From the NCBI GenBank assembly GCA_963842525.1, contig CAWJGT010000012.1, positions 32,001 to 96,000 of the forward strand: 64,000 bases of DNA, in the 5' to 3' direction. A model generated the notes under the pieces. The model saw nothing but the letters and a program-made list of their open reading frames with translations, made no database searches and was not told the DNA's origin. Position numbers and translations under genes: made by a program. How positions within the stretch are numbered: the stretch's first letter is position 1; each line of letters opens with the position of its first letter. This DNA is from an uncultured Holophagales bacterium. Its GTDB lineage: Bacteria; Acidobacteriota; Thermoanaerobaculia; Multivoradales; UBA5704. Shown here one piece after another: positions 1-9,803 of this stretch.

Positions 1-30
1 GGGGCTCCAGGCTGAGGAAGGTCTCACGCG

Positions 31-300
31 ATGCCTGAGCCGGTGAGTCTGCTCATGATCGAATTCCTTGTCTGGATCTCGAGTCACCGGCGGAGCTATG
101 CCGAGGCGATGGAGGCCTGGCGGAGCACGTGCCCGCGTCATACCGTGTGGGAAGATGCTCTCGCAGAGGGTCTGATCCAGGTCGAGAGCGGAGGTACGCT
201 ACGCCAAGCAGAAGTCATCCTGACGCCGCGAGGCAGAGCGGTGCTCGACGAGAAGAACCAGGCTAGTGAAGGTCTTGGTGCACGCCACTTGAGCCCGTGA
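31..300 (+). CDS. Small hypothetical protein, possibly winged-helix-like
   Basis: 89-aa ORF preceded by GAGGAAGG; C-terminal VILTPRGRAVL resembles a wHTH wing. Confidence 0.6.
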   Translation: MPEPVSLLMIEFLVWISSHRRSYAEAMEAWRSTCPRHTVWEDALAEGLIQVESGGTLRQAEVILTPRGRAVLDEKNQASEGLGARHLSP

Positions 301-447
301 GGAAAAGGGTCCCCAGAGACGGCGTATAGAGCCAGTCCTGCCATCAAGCCATCTCTGGGGAATCGAAGGTTAGTTTAGGCGGTCCAGATTACGAACAACA
401 TTACGGCCGGTCCGGACGAAACACTGGATGACGGGGCCAGACGCAAC

Positions 448-1601
448 TCAGGGCAGAGGCTGTCCGGGAACCAGCCGGAGGAGGAAGTCTTCGCAAGGCA
501 GGCATCGAATGCCGTCGATGTCGAGAGCCTCCTGGCCGCGGTAGAGGAGACGGAGCTTCCGCTTCGGGGTAGTCCTCGCGAAACGCCCGTAACCCGCGAA
601 GGTCCGCCGGGCGGATCTCTCCGGTGTGCTTGACCTCCACGGCCCAGAAACCGTCCCGGCCATACACCACGAAGTCGACCTCGCTACCCGCTTTCGTCCT
701 CCAGAAGCTCAACGAGAAGTCGCTGCCCGTGTAGTCGATCCAGGCGCGCAGGTGCTGGGCGATCAGCCCCTCCAGGGCAGCGCCGGCGATCTCCTCGGGC
801 CGGTCGAGAGGGCCTGCGGGCCGGGTGGCAACGAAGACACCGGCGTCGAACCAGTAGAACTTGGGGTGGGAGACCAGGTGGCGTTGCGCCCGCTTGGTGA
901 AGACCGGGACCTGGAACGAGAGAAGGAGGTCTTGGAGGATCCCGAGGTAACCTTCCACCGTCTTGCGGCTGACCTGGCATTCGCGCGCCACGGCGGCAAG
1001 ATTGAGCACCGCCGCCTGCGAGAAGCTGACCGCTTCGAGGAACCGGGCAAACTGGCCGACCTGCCGCACCAGCCCCTCCATCTGGACCTCTTCCCGGAGG
1101 TAGAGGCCCGTGTAGGCCTTGAGAGCTTCGCCAGGCTGGTCTGAGTCCCAGATCAGCGGCACGAGCCCCTGCGAGAGAGCCCTGTCCAGGTTGAACCGGG
1201 GTCCGAGCCTCCGCGGCCATGAAAGGGTGGAGGAACCGCAGGAGCGCCCGTCCGGCCAGGAGGTCGACCCCCTCGCGCTTGAGCTTGCGCGCGCTGGAGC
1301 CGGTCAGCACGAAGCGCGGTCCGGCGCGCCGCTCGATCAGGTCGTGGACGACATCGAGCAGAACAGGGGCCTTCTGGACCTCGTCGATGACGACAACCAG
1401 CTTGTCCGGGTTCCCGGCAACCACCTCCCGTAGCCTCTCCGGCCGGGCGAGGTACAGGCGATGAACCTCCGGTGCCAGCAGGTCGATCCAAAAGGCATCC
1501 GGATACGTCTCCCGCAGCCACGTCGATTTGCCCGTGCCGCGCGGCCCGAACAAGAAATAGTGTATCCCGGGGTCCTGGAGAAATCGCCCTACTGTCGCCA
1601 T
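448..1601 (-). CDS. AAA+ ATPase (AAA_14 + DUF4143 type), split by frameshifts at ~1208 and ~560
   Basis: Walker A GPRGTGKST, Walker B VVIDEVQK, LTGSS, PKFYWFDAG and C-terminal EVDFV..AVEVK spread over three frames (684..1601, 401..1162, 448..663); TATACT and AAGGAAG upstream. Confidence 0.85.
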
Positions 1602-1695
1602 ATCTGCTTCCTTTTCGGCGAGAGTATAGCCGAATCTCCATCTGGGCGACAGGGCAGCGCGCGGTCGTGGGCGCGGCGATGCAGCCTTTTCCCTG

Positions 1696-1986
1696 TCAGC
1701 GGACCGTTTTCAGATCGCTGACCGTTTCGCGCGGCACAGGGGTCGTGTCGCGCACCGTGAGGCCAGCTTGGACGATCTGCGCCTCGAGAAGCTCCATCTC
1801 GCGGTGGCGCTTTTTTTCGAGAGTGCGGTCCGGGAGCGCCCCAACAAGACCAATTGTTACAAGCGGTTCAATGAGTAACGTAACAAATCCCCATAGGAGG
1901 GCCGAGTGGCCTATTTTACGAGATCGGTGGGCGACGAAGAAAATGAAGATGAAAAGCCAAAAGACTGCCGTACAGAATTGCTCCAT
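1696..1986 (-). CDS. Small membrane protein with two hydrophobic helices, last gene of the TIR/FHA/kinase operon
   Basis: 96 aa, AGGAGG RBS, two hydrophobic segments. Confidence 0.7.
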   Translation of the reverse strand: MEQFCTAVFWLFIFIFFVAHRSRKIGHSALLWGFVTLLIEPLVTIGLVGALPDRTLEKKRHREMELLEAQIVQAGLTVRDTTPVPRETVSDLKTVR

Positions 1987-2001
1987 CGATAGCCTCCTGC
2001 T

Positions 2002-2376
2002 TCACACAGGCAGCAGCGCCTTGGCCGCTACCATATATTCATGCAGCCTCGCTGCGAAAAGTGTGTTTTCCTTGCTGCCGCGCAGCTTGAAGGCCACTGT
2101 AGTCCGATGCCTACCTGAATCCTCGAAGACCACCTGGTGGTTGCGGCGTAAGATCTTCCCGGGTGGTCGGTAGCGGATGATTCGTGAATAGGGGATTGTC
2201 CGATACGTCTGCTCGGAGATGATTCGGTGATAGAAACGCAGAGCGAATGGGATGAGGAACTTCGGGAACTCCCCTTCGAGAATCAGCGCGGCATCCTGAA
2301 GATGGATTTTCCCTTTTCCATGGAACTGCAGGTTGCGTACTAAGGAGACCGCCTTGAATTTAGCGTCGAACCTCAT
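2002..2376 (-). CDS. Hypothetical protein, possibly PH-like fold
   Basis: ATG overlaps the kinase stop (ATGA); beta-rich pattern with IPYSRI and a C-terminal helix. Confidence 0.7.
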   Translation of the reverse strand: MRFDAKFKAVSLVRNLQFHGKGKIHLQDAALILEGEFPKFLIPFALRFYHRIISEQTYRTIPYSRIIRYRPPGKILRRNHQVVFEDSGRHRTTVAFKLRGSKENTLFAARLHEYMVAAKALLPV

Positions 2377-3989
2377 GCGGCAGCCCTCCCCGGAATCTCG
2401 CACCGTGCAGCCAAATCAGCAAATTCAAAGCATTGACCGGAGAGTGCGAGATAGCCGTTGCATACCGCCAGGCATTCGCGCAGGAGCCCTAACTCGAAGT
2501 AGCCATGGGCTAGCAGAAGGCTGGCTGCGAAATTATAGGGATCCACTTCCAGAATCAGCTTTGCTTCAACGATCGCTTCTCTGGTCCGGCCAACCGCGAT
2601 CAACGCCTGCACGTACTTTTCCCGAACACTTAAGTCTCCCGTGCTCACGTCGACAAAGCGCCGAAAGCCTTCGATGAGTTGTTCGCGGTCCGTTCCGGCC
2701 AGCCGAACCGCTTCGAGAAGGAAGAGATCTCGCTGCAAGCGACGAGCCTTGACGACGAAGTGGAGAGCCACCAGGAGTAGTGGAGTCTCGTACAATAGAC
2801 CTAGAACCAAGTACAAACCCTGAATGGCCTCAGGCTCAATCCCTAGGATGGTTCCCAGTAAACCTACAAACAGCACGCTCGCTAAGAATCCCAGGATCAG
2901 CAACCCGACTCCCCCAGCCACCTTCCCCCTCGACGTCTTCCGTTCTACCCCCGTGTAGATCAGGGCCGCGCCACCTACGGTCAACAAGCCGGGAAAAATG
3001 CCGGAGGAGATAAGCCAGAAAGCAAGGAGCACGGCAACCCAGGTCCAACTTTTCCGGAGAGTCTCGCGAGCCCTCTTCTCCCAAGTGGTCGTCCGCAGTG
3101 TTCTTTCCTCATGCGGGGCCTGCTCCTTGTCCGATGCTGGCGTCGCGCGTGCGGCTTGGTCGGGCGCGAGCCGCTGCAGCTCCGTAAGGAGTTCTTCCGC
3201 GGAGCTGTAACGCTGGATCAGATCCTTTTCGAGCAGACGGAACAAGATCCGCTCCAAGTCGGGCGCCGGCTCGCCGGTGATCTGGCTCGGCGGTACGGGA
3301 GTCTTGAAGAAGATTTCCTTTGAAAGGCTTTCGAGACTGTCTCCCTCGAATGGGAGCTTTCCCGTGAGCAGCGCGTAGGCTGTTGCTCCCAGAGCCCAAA
3401 GGTCGGACTGGGTCGTGGGACGGCCCCGCAACTGCTCGGGCGCCATGAAGTGATAGGTGCCGCGGAGGCTCCTCTTCAATTGAAGTCCGCCTACGATCCG
3501 GCTCACTCCGAAGTCAACGAGGACGAACCTGCGGTCGTTACCGGTGCTGCTCACCCGGATATTGCTCAGCTTGAAATCGCCGTGGACGATGTCCTGTCGA
3601 TGAGCGTGCGCCAACGCGTCCGCCATCTGGACGAGGAACTGGATCACTTCCGTGGCCGGCAGTCTACCCCTGGTCGCAAGCTCTTCTTGGAGGTCGTGCC
3701 CAGGGACCAGCTCCATGACCAGCACCACTTGGCCGTTTTCCAGGAAGTAGTCCTCGAGGTGGACGATGTTCTTGTGCCGGAGTCGCGACAGCAGCTCTGG
3801 TTCCACGAGCACGGAGTCGAGGCTCAGTGTGTCTCCGATCACCTTGAGTGCCAGCTCTCTCCCGGGCTCACCTTGGCGGTGACCTCGGTATACTGCGCCG
3901 TGTGCCCCTCTTCCAATCTCGCCGGTGGCCACATAGCCGCCGAAGCGCGGCAGCATGTCGCCCCGTGCGCCCGCCACAGGCTCAATCAT
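2373..3989 (-). CDS. Membrane Hanks-type Ser/Thr kinase (non-RD) with several TM helices and a C-terminal TPR-like region
   Basis: GRGAHG, ALK, HGDFKLSN, DFG, GTYHFMAPE, SDLWALG motifs; hydrophobic block after the kinase; ILEVDPYN TPR-like tail. Confidence 0.92.
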   Translation of the reverse strand: MIEPVAGARGDMLPRFGGYVATGEIGRGAHGAVYRGHRQGEPGRELALKVIGDTLSLDSVLVEPELLSRLRHKNIVHLEDYFLENGQVVLVMELVPGHDLQEELATRGRLPATEVIQFLVQMADALAHAHRQDIVHGDFKLSNIRVSSTGNDRRFVLVDFGVSRIVGGLQLKRSLRGTYHFMAPEQLRGRPTTQSDLWALGATAYALLTGKLPFEGDSLESLSKEIFFKTPVPPSQITGEPAPDLERILFRLLEKDLIQRYSSAEELLTELQRLAPDQAARATPASDKEQAPHEERTLRTTTWEKRARETLRKSWTWVAVLLAFWLISSGIFPGLLTVGGAALIYTGVERKTSRGKVAGGVGLLILGFLASVLFVGLLGTILGIEPEAIQGLYLVLGLLYETPLLLVALHFVVKARRLQRDLFLLEAVRLAGTDREQLIEGFRRFVDVSTGDLSVREKYVQALIAVGRTREAIVEAKLILEVDPYNFAASLLLAHGYFELGLLRECLAVCNGYLALSGQCFEFADLAARCEIPGRAAA

Positions 3990-5445
3990 CGTGGACCTCC
4001 GTTACCATGTCGCCGATGGTAGCTTCCAAAGTGACAATCGGGCCGCTCTCTCCCTCTGCTGGCTGCACTTGGAGCGCGCTCTGTCCTTGCCCGCTGGCGA
4101 TCCGGGCTCGGAACAGGACTTCGAGGGTGATCACTCCACCCAAGATCAACCGGTCTCCCGAATGGATAGGGATGGGCATCTCTGGTTCGAGGATCTGACC
4201 GTTGAGGCGGGTCAAGCCTCGGCTTTGGTCCAGGACGAAGTAGTCCTTGTCGATCCGCTGGATCTCAAGGTGTCGACGGCTGATCCGCAGGCTCGCTTTG
4301 TCGGAGCCCGGGACGCGGATCACGAGATCGTTTCCAGAATCAGGGGCTTCGCCGGATTTTCGGCGCTGCCGGCCGAGTCGGAGGATCTCGGTTCCAACCG
4401 GAGCCAGGTAGGCGTAGGGTGTGCCAAGGACCCGCAAGTAAAGGGCAGGCTCGTTTTCCGCGGCAGCGTCATGGCGAAGCCCGAGGAGACCAGGGTTTCC
4501 CTGCGTCAGGGCCGGATCAGCTTGCAGCAGGCGTTTGAGCTGGGCGGCTTCGACATAACCGGGATTAGAGGCCAGAGCCCGATTCAGCCGCACCAGCGCC
4601 TGCGCGATCTGCCCTTGCTCGGCGAAGCGCCGAGCTTCGTCCAGATCCGATTTCTCTTGGAAGCGTCTCGCCGTGACCTCGCGCTGATAGATTTCGAAGT
4701 CCCGCCGACGGCGGGCGCGGTAGCGGGCGATGAGCCCGGTGCGGAGCGCTGCGGCGATGGCCAAGAGAAGGATCAGATGGAGGAGCCGACGTCCCCAGAG
4801 CCCGAGCGGGCCCGTTTTCTCGCGCCAGACGAAGGACGGCACGCTCGGCATTTCCGCTGCATAGAAGGAGGCTCCGAAGGAGACCGCGAGGGGCCCGTCT
4901 TCGGCGGTCAGGACAAGGAGCGGCCTGCGGGCTCCCTTCAGGTACTGCTTCGCCTCGTCCTGATCGAGTCGTAGCTCTTCGTGAGGGACTATCCCTACCC
5001 TGGCTAGCAAAGCATCTGCCTGCTGCTCGGCGGATCCCTTCGCCGGGAGGACGCGATGGACATCGATCTGCTGCTCCTGGGGAGGCCATGGCAGCCTCAT
5101 TCTGCGCTTCCAACCGTGTCCGGACCCCTTGGCTAGGAGCTCGGCGCAGATATCGGCGGACTTGGCCATGATCTCTTGCCGGTCGGGGCGGAAGGCCCGG
5201 AAGCTCCAGACGCCCAGCAGTGCGACGAAAACGAGCAGGGTGATGTTGAGCCGAAGAATCCAGGGAGGGCGCTCCTCTGGATCGACCGGTTCGACCTCCC
5301 GCAGCGCAGGAACAGTCTCCGGCATTCCCCGCGGGCTCTCGAGGATCGTCGGTCCGGCATCATCTTCCAGCTTCTGGCCGCAGGACGGGCATTCGACTGC
5401 TGTCGGCGCCACCGCCGTCCCACAACGCGGGCATCGATCCATCAC
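3982..5445 (-). CDS. Zinc-ribbon / 2TM / TPR / FHA-domain protein
   Basis: CPRC..CPSC, two TM segments, ALASNPGY TPR-like helix pair, FHA motifs LGR and ISRRHL. Confidence 0.85.
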   Translation of the reverse strand: MMDRCPRCGTAVAPTAVECPSCGQKLEDDAGPTILESPRGMPETVPALREVEPVDPEERPPWILRLNITLLVFVALLGVWSFRAFRPDRQEIMAKSADICAELLAKGSGHGWKRRMRLPWPPQEQQIDVHRVLPAKGSAEQQADALLARVGIVPHEELRLDQDEAKQYLKGARRPLLVLTAEDGPLAVSFGASFYAAEMPSVPSFVWREKTGPLGLWGRRLLHLILLLAIAAALRTGLIARYRARRRRDFEIYQREVTARRFQEKSDLDEARRFAEQGQIAQALVRLNRALASNPGYVEAAQLKRLLQADPALTQGNPGLLGLRHDAAAENEPALYLRVLGTPYAYLAPVGTEILRLGRQRRKSGEAPDSGNDLVIRVPGSDKASLRISRRHLEIQRIDKDYFVLDQSRGLTRLNGQILEPEMPIPIHSGDRLILGGVITLEVLFRARIASGQGQSALQVQPAEGESGPIVTLEATIGDMVTEVHDD

Positions 5446-6467
5446 GTGAGCTCGAAGACCTCCGCTTGGAGAAAGAGTGACCCCATCTCAAGCTCGGTAC
5501 CTCGATCGAGCCGCGAGGCCAAGGCTGGATCATCGCCCGTGCGAAGGCAGTAGATCCCGTCTGCCTGGGAGAAAAGGCGGACCTCCCGCCCTTGGCCGAT
5601 CTCGACCGACTTGTCCGGTGCCAGCACGTAGCGCGAGAGCTCTTGCCCCGTCGGGCCGTAATAGATCAGCGTCCCGGCCGGTGAGTCTTCCCTCTCTTCG
5701 CGATGGAAGAGGAACCCGAGCGACGAGCCCAGGGACACGCGGTTGCCGCGGCCCAGAGGGGTGGCAGCAAGGATCTTGCGGCCGTCCACGTACGTGCCAT
5801 TGGCCGACTCCAGGTCTTCGAGAAAGAACTGTCGGCTTCCCGTGCGATAGGATAGCCGCGCGTGAAGATTGCTCACGCTCGCCGGGGCCCGCGTGAAGGA
5901 AAAGTCGCACTGTCGCGACCGGCCGAAGTCAGCTCTGGGGCCGAAGACGCAATGAACCTCCTCCGGCCGAGCTTTCGCGCGCAGCACGACCTTCCAGCGC
6001 CGCACAGCGGGTGCTGTGCCGCGCGAGATGTCTTCGGCGGCACGGCGGATTCCCTCCGCCACATTTTGCCACGCCTCGTCGGGGAGGCTCCACGCAACCA
6101 CGGCCTTACCGTCTTTCGGAAGGACCTGGAGCCTCGCGAACGGGGCTGACTTCCAGTCAGTCGGCCGGACAATGACCGGGATGACACGTGCTTCACCCCG
6201 CTCGTGGCGCTCGAGCGCCCGAGCCATTTCGATGTCATAAGAGTAGTCCGAAGCAATGAAATCGGCGCTGATCAGGAGCAGGATGATATCCGCCTGTTTG
6301 AGGTCCTCGTCAATCGCCCCCTTCCATTCCGATCCGGCCACGATCTTCCGATCGTGCCAGCTCTTAATGATGCCCTCCCGCTCCAACAGCTTGAGGTGGG
6401 TCTCGAGGGCGTCCCGAAGGAGCTCATCTTTGTGGGAATAGCTGTAGAAAAGCTTCAGAGCCTTCAT
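5442..6467 (-). CDS. TIR (TIR_2-like) domain + FHA domain protein
   Basis: LFYSYSHKD..WHD..ADIILLLISADFIASDY..IEM (putative catalytic Glu present); FHA FGRS..SNLHA..DLESANGTYVDG. Confidence 0.9.
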   Translation of the reverse strand: MKALKLFYSYSHKDELLRDALETHLKLLEREGIIKSWHDRKIVAGSEWKGAIDEDLKQADIILLLISADFIASDYSYDIEMARALERHERGEARVIPVIVRPTDWKSAPFARLQVLPKDGKAVVAWSLPDEAWQNVAEGIRRAAEDISRGTAPAVRRWKVVLRAKARPEEVHCVFGPRADFGRSRQCDFSFTRAPASVSNLHARLSYRTGSRQFFLEDLESANGTYVDGRKILAATPLGRGNRVSLGSSLGFLFHREEREDSPAGTLIYYGPTGQELSRYVLAPDKSVEIGQGREVRLFSQADGIYCLRTGDDPALASRLDRGTELEMGSLFLQAEVFELT

Positions 6468-6586
6468 CGCCGCTCATCCAGGGCAGGGTTGACAAACTCT
6501 GCGTTTAGAGTTAGAGAATGTTACAACACAACCCAGCCCCTTGACAAGGCCCAACGAAAAGGTGAGGCCCAGAAGGCCGCAGCCTC

Positions 6587-7975
6587 CTACTCTCCCTTGA
6601 GCCCCGCCTTCTTCGCGTAGTACCGGAAGCTGCGGAAGCTCATCCGCAGCAGCTCGGCGGCCTGGGTCTGGACGCCGCCTGTGCGCTCCAGGGCCTGCTG
6701 CATGAGCTGGGCGCGGATGCCTTCGAGGTGGGCTTCGAGGTCCAGCCCCTCTTCGGGCAGCTCGATGAGGCTCGAATCGACCCTGCGGTGGGTGAGGAGA
6801 TGCACCGGGAGGTCGCGCGTGGTGACGGTCTCGGCGTGGGAGAGAGCCAGAGCGCGCTCGATCAGGTTCTCGAGCTCGCGGACGTTGCCCGGCCAGTCGT
6901 AGCTCTCCAGCATCTGCATGGCCTCGATCGAGATCTGCCGCGGCGGCAGGTCCATCTGCTTGCAGTACTTCTGCAGGAAGAAGTCGACCAGCAGCGGGAT
7001 GTCCTCCCGCCGCTGCCGCAACGGCGGCAGATGGATCGGCAGGACGTTGATCCGGTAGTAGAGGTCCTCGCGCAGCTCGCCGGTCTGGATGCGCGCTTCC
7101 AGGTCCTGGTTGGTGGCGGCGATGATCCGGACGTCGACCGGCTCCTCCTCGGTGCCGCCCACCTTGCGCACGACCTTCTCCTGGAGCGCGCGCAGGAGCT
7201 TCACCTGCATGGTGGGCGTCATCTCGCCGATCTCGTCCAGGAACAGGGTGCCGTGGTGCGCCTCCTGGAACAGCCCCTTCTTGTCGCGCACGGCGCCTGT
7301 GAAGGACCCCCGCTCGTGGCCGAACAGCTCGCTCTCCAACAGGTTTTCGGGCATCGCGCCGCAGTTGATGGAGAGGAACCGCCGGGCGGAGCGCGGGCTC
7401 GCGTAGTGGATCGCGCGGGCGATCAGCTCCTTGCCGGTGCCGCTCTCGCCGTGGATCAGCACCGTCGAGCTGGTGCGGGCGATCCGCTCGACGAGCGAGA
7501 AGATGGCCTGCATGCGCGAGCTCTTGCCGATGATGTTGTTGAACGTGTACTTCTGCTCCAGCTCGCGGCGCAGGTAGACGTTCTCGTGGGCGAGCTCCTC
7601 GCGCTCCAAGGCCTTCTGGACCACGATTTTCAGCTCGTCGACGTCGAACGGCTTCGAGATGTAGTCCGCCGCGCCCAGCTTCATCGCCTCGATCGCCGAC
7701 TTGGTCGAGGTGTAGGCGGTCATCATGACGACCGGCGGGCTCGGCTCGGCCGTCTTGATCTCGCGCAGCAGGTCGAGGCCGCTGCCGTCGGGCATCAGGA
7801 CGTCGCAGAGGATCAGGTCGTAGCCGTTGCGGCCCAGCGCGCGGCGGGCGTCGCCGACGCAGCGGGCGGTCTCCACCTCGTATCCCTCCTGCTGGAAGAG
7901 CAGCGAGAGGAAGTCGAGGATGCTCTCTTCGTCGTCGATGAGGAGCAGGCGTCCTTCCATGCGGGTCGGTTCCAT
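6587..7975 (-). CDS. pilR: Sigma-54-dependent response regulator, PilR type
   Basis: Receiver [28 protein letters not shown], Fis-type HTH ending SFRSFRY; adjacent to pilS/pilC/pilT. Confidence 0.88.
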
Positions 7976-7988
7976 CAAGCCAAATCCA

Positions 7989-9803
7989 TCAGGGCAATTC
8001 CGAGGCGGCGAGCAGCGCCGGCTCCAGGGCGTTGCGGACCGCGGCGGCTTCATCCCGCGGCAGCTCGACGGTGATCGTGGTGCCGCTTCCGGGCCGGCTG
8101 TCGGCGTGCAGCCGGCCGCCGTGGTCCTGCACGATGCGGTAGACGATGGCCATGCCGATACCGGTGCCGCCATCGAAGAACGAGCGGAACGGATGGAAGA
8201 GGTTGGCCCGCTGCTCCTCGGACATGCCGCGGCCGGTGTCGATCACCTGGAACCGGTAGCAGCGCTCGGCGAGCCGGCCCACGACCCGCAGCCGGCCGCC
8301 GTCCGGCATGGCCCGCAGGGCGTTGCGCGCCAGGTTCCAGAAGATCTGGCTCACCTGGTCCGCATCTCCAAGCAGCGCGGCGGAGGGCGGGTCGAGGTCG
8401 AGATCCAGCCGGTGCCGGTCGGACACCTCGGCGCTGTTGCGGAGCAGCTCGAAGTTCTCGGCGAGGAGCTTCGCGATGTCGAACGGCGTGCTGGAGCGGT
8501 CGCGGGGGCGCGCGAAGCGGAGGAAGCCCTTGATGGTCCGGTCGAGGCGCTGGCTCTCCTTGAGCAGGATGTCGACCAGCCGGCGCTGCGCCGGATCGGT
8601 GGCCGCCGCGCTGGAGAGCATCTGCACCGAGCCGGAGATCGCGGCGAGCGGGTTGCCGATCTCGTGCGCCAGCCCGGCGGCGAGCTCGCCGACCGCGGCC
8701 ATGCGGTCCTTGACGCGCAGCTCGTCGCGCAGCCTCCGCCAGTGGGTCAGGTCCTGGAAGATCACGATGTAGCCGCTGTGCCGGCCGGCGGCCTCGGTGA
8801 GCTGCGAGATGGAGAAGCCGATGTAGGCCGTTTCGCCCTCGCCGCGTTCCAGCTCCACCTCGGAACGGAGCTTGCCGCGCTGCTCGCTGGCGGCGGTGAG
8901 CTCGCCCCACTGGCGGGAGGAGAAGAGGCCGGATTCCTGGATCGGCCGGCCCACCAGCTCCCCCTCGGGTTTGCTCAGGATGGCGAGCCCAGCCTGGTTG
9001 ACCAGCGCGACGACGCCGTCGAGGTCGGTCGTGATCAGGCCGCTGTTGATCGACTGGACGATGTCGCGGTGCATCACCTGAAGGTCGGCCAGGTGCTCGC
9101 TCTTCTCTTCCAGCGCCCGCTCGGCGCGGGCGACGTTGTGGGCCAGGTAGGAGGTCAGCAGCGCCACGGCGTAGAAGCCCGCGCAGTGCACCGCCAGGCT
9201 GTAGGCCACGCGCCAGCTCGCCACCTGGTCCGGAGCGCTCCCCACGGGTTGCAGCACTCCGAAGTAGAGCAGCAGGATCAGGCTGGCATAGAGGAAGTTG
9301 GCGGCGCTCGCCACGATCACGCCGGCGCGGCGGCGCAGCAGCGTCGAAGCCACCGCGATGACGATCAGGTAGAGCAGCGAGAACGGGCTCTCGACGCCAC
9401 CCAGGAAATAGACCAGCGCCGTGATCAGCAGCAGGTCGCCGAAGAACTGGAGATAGGCGTGGATCGCCGGGCGCTTCCGCAGGACCCGGAGCAGGACGAT
9501 GTAGAGCAGGGTGGCGAGGAAGGTGAGGCCGCCGAGCCGGAAGACGATCTCCGGCCGGATCGCCTCCTCCCCGAAAACCGGCCGGACCGGCTTCTCCACC
9601 GTGGCAGGCTCGGAAGGAGGCGGCGCCACGGCGGGCGGCACCGCCGGGGACGTGGGAGCCGCCGTCCCGGTCTCCTCCTCGGGCACCTCGGGCGGAGAGG
9701 CGGTCGGGCCGATCAGCAGCAGCCCATAGGGCAGCAGCACGCTGCCGATCGCCACCAGGCGGATGGCGATGTACCACTTGAGCTGCCTCTGGAGTGTCAA
9801 CAT
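7989..9803 (-). CDS. pilS: Membrane PAS sensor histidine kinase, PilS type
   Basis: Multi-TM N-terminus, PAS, AHEIGNPL H-box, N/G1/G2 boxes. Confidence 0.85.
   Translation of the reverse strand: MLTLQRQLKWYIAIRLVAIGSVLLPYGLLLIGPTASPPEVPEEETGTAAPTSPAVPPAVAPPPSEPATVEKPVRPVFGEEAIRPEIVFRLGGLTFLATLLYIVLLRVLRKRPAIHAYLQFFGDLLLITALVYFLGGVESPFSLLYLIVIAVASTLLRRRAGVIVASAANFLYASLILLLYFGVLQPVGSAPDQVASWRVAYSLAVHCAGFYAVALLTSYLAHNVARAERALEEKSEHLADLQVMHRDIVQSINSGLITTDLDGVVALVNQAGLAILSKPEGELVGRPIQESGLFSSRQWGELTAASEQRGKLRSEVELERGEGETAYIGFSISQLTEAAGRHSGYIVIFQDLTHWRRLRDELRVKDRMAAVGELAAGLAHEIGNPLAAISGSVQMLSSAAATDPAQRRLVDILLKESQRLDRTIKGFLRFARPRDRSSTPFDIAKLLAENFELLRNSAEVSDRHRLDLDLDPPSAALLGDADQVSQIFWNLARNALRAMPDGGRLRVVGRLAERCYRFQVIDTGRGMSEEQRANLFHPFRSFFDGGTGIGMAIVYRIVQDHGGRLHADSRPGSGTTITVELPRDEAAAVRNALEPALLAASELP

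Follow-up and report, generated by a model that had tools for sequence, protein, structure and literature searches.

A candidate phospho-relay conflict system: a conserved membrane kinase/FHA cassette with a variable effector slot in an uncultured Holophagales bacterium

Introduction

Known bacterial immune and cell-death systems trigger their effectors by way of NTPases or nucleotide second messengers, or when phage proteins bind directly. In the TIFA/ALPK1 pathway of animals, a kinase phosphorylates a target threonine, an FHA domain binds the phosphorylated segment of another copy, and the resulting oligomer activates a downstream effector. Bacteria pair kinases with FHA domains to regulate housekeeping processes, as with PknB and FhaA in actinobacteria or PpkA and Fha1 for type VI secretion; in the threonine phosphorylation pathway of type VI secretion systems (T6SS; PpkA, Fha1/TagH, PppA), a membrane Hanks-type kinase and an FHA scaffold assemble the machine after a membrane cue. 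The FHA domain of Bdellovibrio DgcB is also said to read a phosphorylated terminal tail, switching on the attached enzyme. Here we analyze a five-gene cassette encoding a TIR-FHA protein, a membrane FHA protein, a membrane Ser/Thr kinase and two small proteins, found in a 64,000-nucleotide (nt) stretch of an uncultured Holophagales bacterium (Acidobacteriota; GenBank assembly GCA_963842525.1, contig CAWJGT010000012.1, positions 32,001 to 96,000), referred to below as the window. With a probability of about 0.6, we read this cassette as a mobile, self-contained kinase/FHA conflict system, serving anti-invader immunity or programmed cell death, in which phospho-dependent assembly activates a swappable death effector.

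On the effector side, the closest described relatives are conflict systems built with effector-associated domains (EADs). In the portions of Kaur et al. (2020, eLife, PMC7159879) drawn on here, TIR, CHAT, caspase and trypsin domains are treated as death or immune effectors, and a paired adaptor on both effector and core defines an EAD. FHA and kinase domains appear in those portions only sporadically and on the effector side, with most of the kinases called inactive, and the parts of the Aravind-group papers used here mention FHA and kinase domains only in passing.

Results

The cassette consists of five consecutive genes, g1 to g5:

6467..5442, minus strand: g1, 341 amino acids (aa), TIR domain, FHA domain (FHA1) and C-terminal beta-rich domain
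5445..3982, minus strand: g2, 487 aa, zinc ribbon, transmembrane (TM) segment, ectodomain, second TM segment, helical region, FHA domain (FHA2) and disordered tail
3989..2373, minus strand: g3, 538 aa, Ser/Thr kinase, about four TM helices and TPR-like domain
2376..2002, minus strand: g4, 124 aa counted from ATG, PH/PTB-like protein
1986..1696, minus strand: g5, 96 aa, two-TM protein with a cytoplasmic helix and tail

The original prediction, made from the sequence alone, described five same-strand genes, the first four overlapping, in DNA more AT-rich than the neighboring pil genes, and both points were confirmed. Genes g1 and g2 overlap (acgTGATGg), g2 and g3 overlap by 8 nt, and an ATGA is common to g3 and g4, being shared by the g3 stop and the g4 ATG at 2376; the list of open reading frames (ORFs) instead starts g4 at a GTG at 2403. 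A gap of 15 nt separates g4 from g5, which is preceded by AGGAGG. GC content across positions 1500-6500 is 0.55-0.65 versus 0.64-0.73 in the pil region, and GC content at third codon positions (GC3) is 0.63-0.76 in the five cassette genes versus 0.93-0.96 in the adjacent pilS/pilC-like genes. The predicted domain make-up also held in nearly every part, since a TIR domain with the catalytic-position Glu fused to an intact FHA domain (g1), a kinase with TM helices and a TPR-like tail (g3), a PH-like protein (g4) and a two-TM protein (g5) were all recovered. The description of g2 stood for its zinc ribbon, two TM segments and FHA domain, while the TPR assigned to it had no Pfam match.

Scans with a g2 alignment (A1) gathered nine loci from species genomes (Nostoc, Aulosira, two Okeania, Moorena, an uncultured cyanobacterium, Desulfobacterales, Saprospiraceae and Planctomycetia) and ten from metagenomes. 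The five-gene synteny that had been proposed as a check was found: by tblastn and blastp, the order FHA1 module, g2, g3, g4, g5 is kept in 18 of the 19 loci, as far as each contig reaches. Twelve loci carry g2-g3-g4, ten of them with g5 as well, and the other two (L008, L023) stop at a contig edge. L012 is a variant locus with a caspase-FHA2-tail protein beside a different kinase, and in six cyanobacterial loci the FHA half of g1 and g2 make up one polypeptide of ~740 aa in which a short helical segment replaces the TIR domain. The five genes form one conserved unit across phyla, and chance juxtaposition was rejected on this synteny evidence. The FHA2-plus-tail family as a whole is small, comprising 60 clusters at 90% identity (among 5.8 billion).

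Within its own phylum the cassette is rare. We did not find g2 in five same-genus or 19 same-family genomes, matches in three other genomes (41 searched) were weak (21-84 residues, E 2e-4 to 6e-4), and the g4 profile matched the source genome alone among 401 genomes sampled across the phylum. Judged by its GC3 contrast and patchy occurrence, the cassette is a foreign, horizontally acquired accessory unit.

Four features of the cassette concern the proposed reading of phosphothreonine:

5727..5927, minus strand: FHA1 of g1 (residues 181-247), with G182 R183, S199..H202 and N223 G224 (Pfam, alignment)
4105..4449, minus strand: FHA2 of g2 (residues 333-447), with G358 R359, S389 R390 R391 H392 and N415 G416 (Pfam match at 357-436, alignment)
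3994..4026, minus strand: g2 C-terminal tail motif E474-A-T-I-G-D-M-V-T482-E-V (family alignment)
1699..1728, minus strand: g5 C-terminal tail motif E-T88-V-S-D91-L-K-T94-V-R (11 orthologues)

The putative writer is g3, in which Pfam places Pkinase at residues 20-267 and TPR_19 at 463-530, and a hydropathy scan places about four TM helices at 314-413. K49, E63, D138, K140, N143, D159-F-G and P184-E185 (APE) do not vary among 12 orthologues; with its catalytic residues all retained, the kinase looks functional by alignment. It is also the best conserved cassette protein (58% mean column identity), and its TPR-like C-terminal domain is the most conserved non-catalytic part, with many invariant columns. 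A non-RD kinase had been put forward as a feature of the system, which did not hold, as the catalytic loop reads HRD in 9 of the 12 orthologous kinases, HSD in two (L020, L023) and HGD only in the window copy. The TIR-linked kinase of L008 has HRD, and absence of the RD arginine may go with a single subclade of high-GC cassettes.

Both FHA domains retain the residues predicted to bind phosphothreonine and look functional on that basis. G182-R183, S199-x-x-H202 and N223-G224 are all present in FHA1, which is homologous to the first FHA of the ~740-aa cyanobacterial fusion proteins, and the GR, SRRH and NG motifs of FHA2 are invariant among aligned homologues. The FHA2 model superposes on solved FHA domains with VIA-align Z scores of 11-12; its structural neighbors include the DgcB FHA-tail complex 6hc0 (Z 11.7), 6hbz (Z 11.7-12.0 for the pair) and TIFA 4zgi (Z 8.6).

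The candidate substrates are the two tails, which end in the same Thr-bearing motif. The g2-type consensus, E-A-[TS]-[ILV]-G-D-[ML]-x-T-E-V, is present in 58 of 60 FHA2-family proteins (one of the other two has D changed to N, the other is truncated) and in every locus with the 3' end on the contig, the remaining copies having a shifted frame or D changed to N. The g5-type consensus from 11 orthologues is [QE]-[TS]-[ILV]-[SG]-D-x-x-T-[IVM]-R; D91 and T94 do not vary, and T88 is almost invariant. When the regular expression [TS][ILVM][SG][DE]xxT was run on 351 locus ORFs, 24 of its 25 matches were g2 or g5 C-termini. The g2 tail is disordered in the AlphaFold2 (AF2) model (pLDDT ~30). Two FHA domains and two like Thr-bearing tails beside a kinase suggest that kinase, tails and FHA domains are a writer, substrate and reader set.

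The candidate effector is the N-terminal domain of g1:

6000..6455, minus strand: TIR domain of g1 (residues 5-156), Glu80 kept (Pfam, PADLOC, alignments)

Pfam identified TIR_2 at residues 7-114 of g1 and FHA at 181-247, and the PADLOC ThsB1 model (PDLC00420) matches residues 5-156 with E 4.4e-63. Glu80 is kept in all eight aligned TIR-bearing homologues and lines up with the Cat1 TIR's conserved Glu, so that g1 carries, at the level of sequence, the TIR-NADase hallmark of a catalytic Glu in a conserved helix. Among the 120 best g1 matches, four span the whole protein, the only full-length homologues being P0002-P0004; the remaining matches share the TIR domain alone, at 60-70% identity, joined there to COR/Roc/LRR, WD40, TPR, NB-ARC or CHAT. 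Outside the window, this TIR type recurs in 15 more ORFs of the source genome (27-51% identity, open frames between 81 and 1006 aa long), which suggests a large repertoire of TIR-bearing proteins.

The slot N-terminal to FHA1 varies between loci. TIR fills it in the window, L008, L020 and L024 and in P0002-P0004, and most relatives were found without TIR, so the original view of TIR as a constant component had to be given up. In the Saprospiraceae locus (L011) the slot holds EAD11 (47 bits), and in P0150 CHAT is fused directly to FHA. Cyanobacterial scaffolds carry an EAD9-like adaptor in the slot, matched by CHAT or trypsin proteins encoded just upstream: CHAT plus Pfam EAD9 in L007 and L014 (EAD9 at 30 bits on the CHAT protein), CHAT in L015, and a trypsin-like peptidase in L013 (E 2.5e-14) and, weakly, L009. 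All five upstream proteins share homology between their C-terminal ~55 aa and the first ~55 aa of the FHA scaffold (31-45% identity, E down to 2e-11). Elsewhere the FHA2-tail unit is fused at its N-terminus to caspase (P0152, P0327), CHAT (P0333, P0150), TIR (P0155, P0334) or kinase (P0154, P0325). These varied slot contents and fusions point to an unchanging kinase/FHA core on which TIR is one exchangeable death effector among several, and association with TIR, CHAT, trypsin, EAD and caspase domains is, in sequence terms, the signature of immune and cell-death systems.

The two smallest proteins are predicted to join the kinase at the membrane, where g5 would dock on one domain in particular:

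2400..2660, minus strand: g3 C-terminal TPR-like domain (residues 444-530), where the g5 helix is predicted to dock (Pfam TPR_19, complex model)

A hydropathy scan found two TM helices in g5, which had no Pfam or PADLOC match and, in an atlas search, matched unnamed clusters only (at 0.89). When g3, g4 and g5 were modeled together with g5 as the scored partner, the complex scored 0.67, compared with 0.05 for the best of three controls; of 80 solved complexes 58 attained the mark used for this score, as did two of 110 mismatched pairs, a calibration that is only rough here because we supplied the alignments ourselves and modeled three chains. Agreement between runs is at least 89% of contacts, with partner pLDDT of at least 71. 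In the model the g5 TM helices pack on g3 residues 337-409, and the g5 cytoplasmic helix 52-74 (invariant R60, E63, L67) packs on residues 444-505 of the g3 TPR-like domain. The lowest-error contacts run from R60, E63 and L67 of g5 to the g3 stretch 470-478, which holds the invariant A472 and E475. Residues 39-53 of g4 touch g5. Thus g5, and marginally g4, is predicted to rest against the kinase's TM bundle and TPR domain, and since the motif-bearing end of g5 lies outside the confident interface, it would be free.

No Pfam, NCBIfam or PADLOC match was obtained for g4. Its AF2 model (pLDDT 85.5) is a sandwich of seven strands (residues 2-98) with a C-terminal helix (101-121). The Foldseek matches listed to rank 50, with similar chains of listed entries omitted and two titles not explicit, are all PH, PTB or other PH-superfold domains, such as the Exo84 Ral-binding domain and CheF (E 1e-3 to 1.5e-2, TM 0.46-0.64). 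The model therefore fits the description of a PH/PTB-like fold, a seven-stranded sandwich with a helix cap. The g4 family is likewise small, with 217 representatives at E<=1e-3, 103 of them at E<=1e-10 (among 1.84 billion). The N-terminal half of the domain also opens proteins of 600-880 aa that continue into TPR_12 arrays or WD40 propellers (P0215, P0239, P0248, P0272, P0276, P0293), and further relatives of ~185-200 aa match in two stretches; the g4 domain may serve as an adaptor outside this cassette as well. As the g4 and g5 families are without any annotation, the function of the cassette, if confirmed, would supply them with a functional context.

The remaining features of g1 and g2 and the region upstream of the cassette are:

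5445..5705, minus strand: g1 C-terminal domain (residues 255-341); invariant E, R-Y and G (alignment A6)
5368..5436, minus strand: zinc ribbon of g2 (residues 4-26; Pfam Zn_Ribbon_1, 25.2 bits versus a cut-off of 25)
4807..5187, minus strand: extracytoplasmic alpha/beta domain of g2 (residues 87-213), candidate sensor (TM scan, AF2 pLDDT 80-90)
6468..6586, minus strand: intergenic stretch separating g1 from the pilR-like gene, holding one promoter-like site (6547-6518)

We considered the C-terminal domain of g1 as a degenerate second FHA and rejected this, as hhalign of its alignment against that of FHA1 (A6 versus A7) gave a probability of 0.7%. The zinc ribbon is omitted from the gene-caller version of g2 (P0121, 447 aa), though homologues conserve it. 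It is present where g1 and g2 are separate (the window, L008, L011, L018, L019, L020, L022, L024) and absent from the fused cyanobacterial forms, and may be a docking site for g1. The ectodomain lies between the two TM segments of g2 from the hydropathy scan (TM1 60-86, TM2 214-242). An atlas search with residues 87-213 gave no usable match, and in a VIA fold search with the whole g2 model the list was filled by FHA matches.

A promoter and terminator scan found one promoter-like site (0.8 expected) and five terminator-like sites, not above shuffled sequence. There was no tRNA within positions 1-8000 of the window, and no boundary repeat or inverted repeat within positions 1-7000. Downstream of the cassette lies an AAA_14-type ATPase gene (401-1601, minus strand), apparently frameshifted into two overlapping ORFs (684-1601 and 401-1162), whose N-terminal part matches PADLOC candidate PDC-S01 models (E 3e-15). 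Because its GC3 (0.77) is similarly low, this gene may be part of the same foreign island; it is not conserved beside other cassettes. In the left flank (L005, G000:C12:12001-32000), a group II intron reverse transcriptase/maturase (5304-6641) and a DDE transposase fragment (8811-9401) lie in a second low-GC3 stretch (0.72-0.80) 11-15 kb left of the window, and no recognized defense gene was found among the ten ORFs scanned there. Upstream of g1, the pilR-like sigma-54 activator (6587-8173, minus strand) has a 528-aa frame in the ORF list, with a long Pro/Ala-rich N-terminal extension overlapping the pilS-like gene, and its true start is probably further downstream than that of the ORF list.

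Neighboring genes differ in every locus. Apart from the upstream peptidase, no conserved extra gene flanks the cassette in the 19 loci, and no phosphatase is conserved. In L014 an eCIS core domain protein (2220-3866, minus strand) and an AAA ATPase with IetA-like PADLOC matches (3939-5933, plus strand) lie upstream of the cassette. Frame breaks split g2 or g3 in L010 (7383-9329), L014 (7092-9105 and 9377-10983), L009 (5992-7965) and L021 (16-882); these may be decaying copies or assembly errors.

Discussion

These features can be arranged into a working mechanism. The g2 ectodomain, or alternatively the TM bundle of g3 and g5, would sense a disturbance of the membrane or envelope; g3, thereby switched on, would phosphorylate the tail threonines of g2 and g5. 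FHA1 and FHA2 would bind the phosphorylated tails in trans, in the manner of TIFA or DgcB, and so gather g1 into membrane clusters. TIR NADases need oligomerization to form active sites, and the clustered TIR domains would break down NAD+ and halt the cell; the proteases of relatives (CHAT, caspase or trypsin) would be activated through proximity in the same assembly. The absence of a conserved phosphatase from the cassette fits a one-way switch.

A narrower version of this proposal, which we hold tentatively and think somewhat less likely to be right than wrong, is a bacterial TIFA-like switch in which kinase-phosphorylated tails and FHA domains form a head-to-tail polymer and the attached TIR, caspase, CHAT or trypsin domain is activated by proximity. 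The original prediction had likened the cassette to Toll-Pelle signaling; that analogy proved loose, and a TIFA-like assembly of FHA domain plus phospho-tail fits the anatomy better. If true, the switch would be a phosphorylation-driven prokaryotic counterpart of animal co-operative-assembly signaling (TIFA/ALPK1, Toll-Pelle-Pellino).

Several observations weigh against a conflict system of this kind. Some concern the tails. The first motif position gives the pTxxD pattern favored by some FHA domains, and FHA domains prefer pThr, but most g2 tails of cyanobacteria have Ser there; in g5 the second, invariant Thr stands two residues from the C-terminus and therefore has no +3 residue; and a linker of ~27 residues could allow binding in cis, between the g2 tail and the FHA2 of the same molecule. 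Others concern context. In the window the cassette is flanked by pil genes and the frameshifted AAA_14 ATPase. The defense-island co-location that had been proposed as a check was not seen: one of ten flanking proteins from four loci (L006, L011, L014, L015) matched PADLOC, an IetA-like AAA ATPase, the others being chemotaxis, porin, glycosyltransferase or unknown proteins. No relative was found in viral contigs (18 pattern matches, none confirmed) or, at E 1e-8, in a plasmid collection. Finally, no effector gene adjoins the cassette in L006, the Nostoc locus, and the core may therefore function without a death enzyme. The original idea of a phospho-signaling defense system is thus supported by the conserved unit, the retained kinase and FHA residues and the death-effector slot, and loses the constant TIR, the non-RD kinase and the defense-island context.

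Part of this evidence would suit an envelope, motility or cell-surface signaling module with no role in conflict, in which TIR is a protein-interaction domain. Three membrane proteins and a kinase resemble ordinary Hanks-kinase signaling, the best NCBIfam match of g3 is the PknB family (below cut-off), the window cassette has pilS/pilR/pilC-like neighbors and that of L015 sits between CheR and methyl-accepting chemotaxis protein genes, and the quiet flanks and effector-less L006 locus fit as well. GC3 nevertheless marks the cassette as foreign to the pil genes, and it was not found in the same-genus and same-family genomes or in 400 other genomes of the phylum. With different neighbors in every locus, no housekeeping partner is conserved, whereas the slot holds TIR with its Glu, CHAT, or EAD adaptors paired with CHAT or trypsin, and the FHA2-tail unit is fused to caspase elsewhere. 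We consider such a housekeeping role improbable, though it is the strongest of the competing explanations.

Two other explanations keep a conflict role and move the toxic step, and we regard each as quite unlikely. In one, g1 is a ThsB-type TIR that makes an ADP-ribose-derived signal for a distant effector, with the kinase and FHA domains only gating synthesis. The strong ThsB1 match and the 15 further ORFs of this TIR type in the genome speak for it, but there is no ThsA-type gene in or next to the cassette, and proteases or protease-recruiting adaptors take the TIR position in orthologous cassettes, which suits a terminal effector better than a signal generator. In the other, the kinase itself is the effector and, like Stk2 or PD-T4-6, would arrest growth once activated by phosphorylating many proteins of host or phage, with FHA, g4 and g5 regulatory and the TIR or proteases optional. 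Its high conservation, the L006 locus, the lack of a conserved phosphatase and matches to the PADLOC PD-T4-6 (E 1.9e-56) and MADS mad6 (E 1e-56) models are all compatible with this. Those matches (E 1e-56 to 1e-21 over all kinase models), however, are limited to residues ~16-300 of g3, the generic kinase domain; the FHA2-tail unit is fused to caspase, CHAT or TIR with no g3-type kinase in the same protein, and the paired EAD9 adaptors show effector recruitment built into the scaffold. A kinase/FHA core that assembles exchangeable death effectors therefore remains the reading we favor.

The cassette suggests a further principle for triggering effectors, protein threonine phosphorylation read by FHA domains, and offers concrete parts for it: one kinase, two readers, one short tail motif on two membrane proteins and a defined effector slot. 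If confirmed, it would be a new core type among the effector-adaptor systems that multicellular bacteria carry, would open TIR clustering to biochemical study and would bear on the origin of FHA/kinase logic in animal innate immunity.

Comparison with known systems

The expectation that this is not a named system held in the model sets and literature searched. No system model of PADLOC v2.0.0 covers the cassette; g2, g4 and g5 had no match, and g1 and g3 had domain-level matches only. NCBIfam gave no match above cut-off for the cassette proteins, and no description of the cassette was found in the openly readable article texts searched.

Two described systems share one catalytic domain each with the cassette. 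Like Thoeris ThsB, the g1 TIR matches the ThsB1 model and keeps the catalytic-position Glu; unlike ThsB, it is fused to FHA within a kinase cassette and replaced by proteases in orthologous cassettes. Membership in Thoeris fails because ThsA is missing, with PADLOC finding no ThsA-type gene among g2-g5 and the neighboring ATPase, and the other neighbor being pilR-like. Stk2, PD-T4-6, MADS mad6 and BREX PglW share the Hanks-type kinase domain with g3 and have none of the FHA, PH-like and two-TM proteins or the TM-TPR tail; a catalytic kinase is present here, while the single-gene full-length architecture of PD-T4-6 and Stk2 is not, g3 always occurring with g2, g4 and g5.

Other systems share the pairing of a phosphorylated segment with an FHA domain. 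TIFA resembles g2 in having an FHA domain and a short unstructured Thr segment in one protein, but kinship between TIFA/ALPK1 and the cassette is limited to the FHA fold: the cassette tail is C-terminal, the kinase is a Hanks-type membrane kinase and not an alpha-kinase, and oligomerization in the cassette is inferred. DgcB differs in its diguanylate cyclase enzyme, its N-terminal tail and its lack of a membrane complex and of effector swapping. Both cassette FHA domains match the T6SS TagH model TIGR03354 weakly (26.1 and 23.2 bits versus a cut-off of 120), and there are no T6SS genes and no PP2C phosphatase at the cassette, which sets it apart from the threonine phosphorylation pathway. The permuted-FHA systems of a 2026 ParA preprint are unlike the cassette FHA proteins in lacking the His and having an Ig-like domain. 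A functional analogue is the Esr pathway of Actinomycetales (bioRxiv 10.64898/2026.09.08.750141): as described in the portions of that preprint drawn on here, a threat sensor at the surface or membrane activates a Ser/Thr kinase, which phosphorylates Thr in a disordered region of an FHA output protein whose non-FHA part is highly variable. Esr, in the same portions, works through MoxR, vWA and beta-propeller surface filaments, and its output is transcriptional and by Esx secretion; the cassette contains none of those genes, and the cassette output domains are, unlike those of Esr, death effectors.

The closest overall likeness is to the EAD conflict systems (Kaur, Burroughs, Iyer, Aravind 2020, PMC7159879). 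As far as the portions cited here describe them, they draw on the same pool of TIR, CHAT, caspase and trypsin effectors, fuse the effector directly or recruit it via the same adaptor domain on effector and core, and occur in similar hosts, filamentous cyanobacteria and large-genome soil bacteria. The cassette has both arrangements, with a direct TIR fusion in the window, the EAD9 pair, and EAD11 in L011. The difference lies in the core, which in the EAD systems of that source is an NTPase (STAND, MoxR-vWA, GTPase) and here is a membrane Ser/Thr kinase with two FHA domains, a PH-like and a two-TM protein. Pfam and NCBIfam identified no NTPase domain in g1-g5, and membership among the EAD systems fails because this core is absent. 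The cassette thus looks like an undescribed phospho-relay kinase/FHA core within the effector-adaptor conflict systems.

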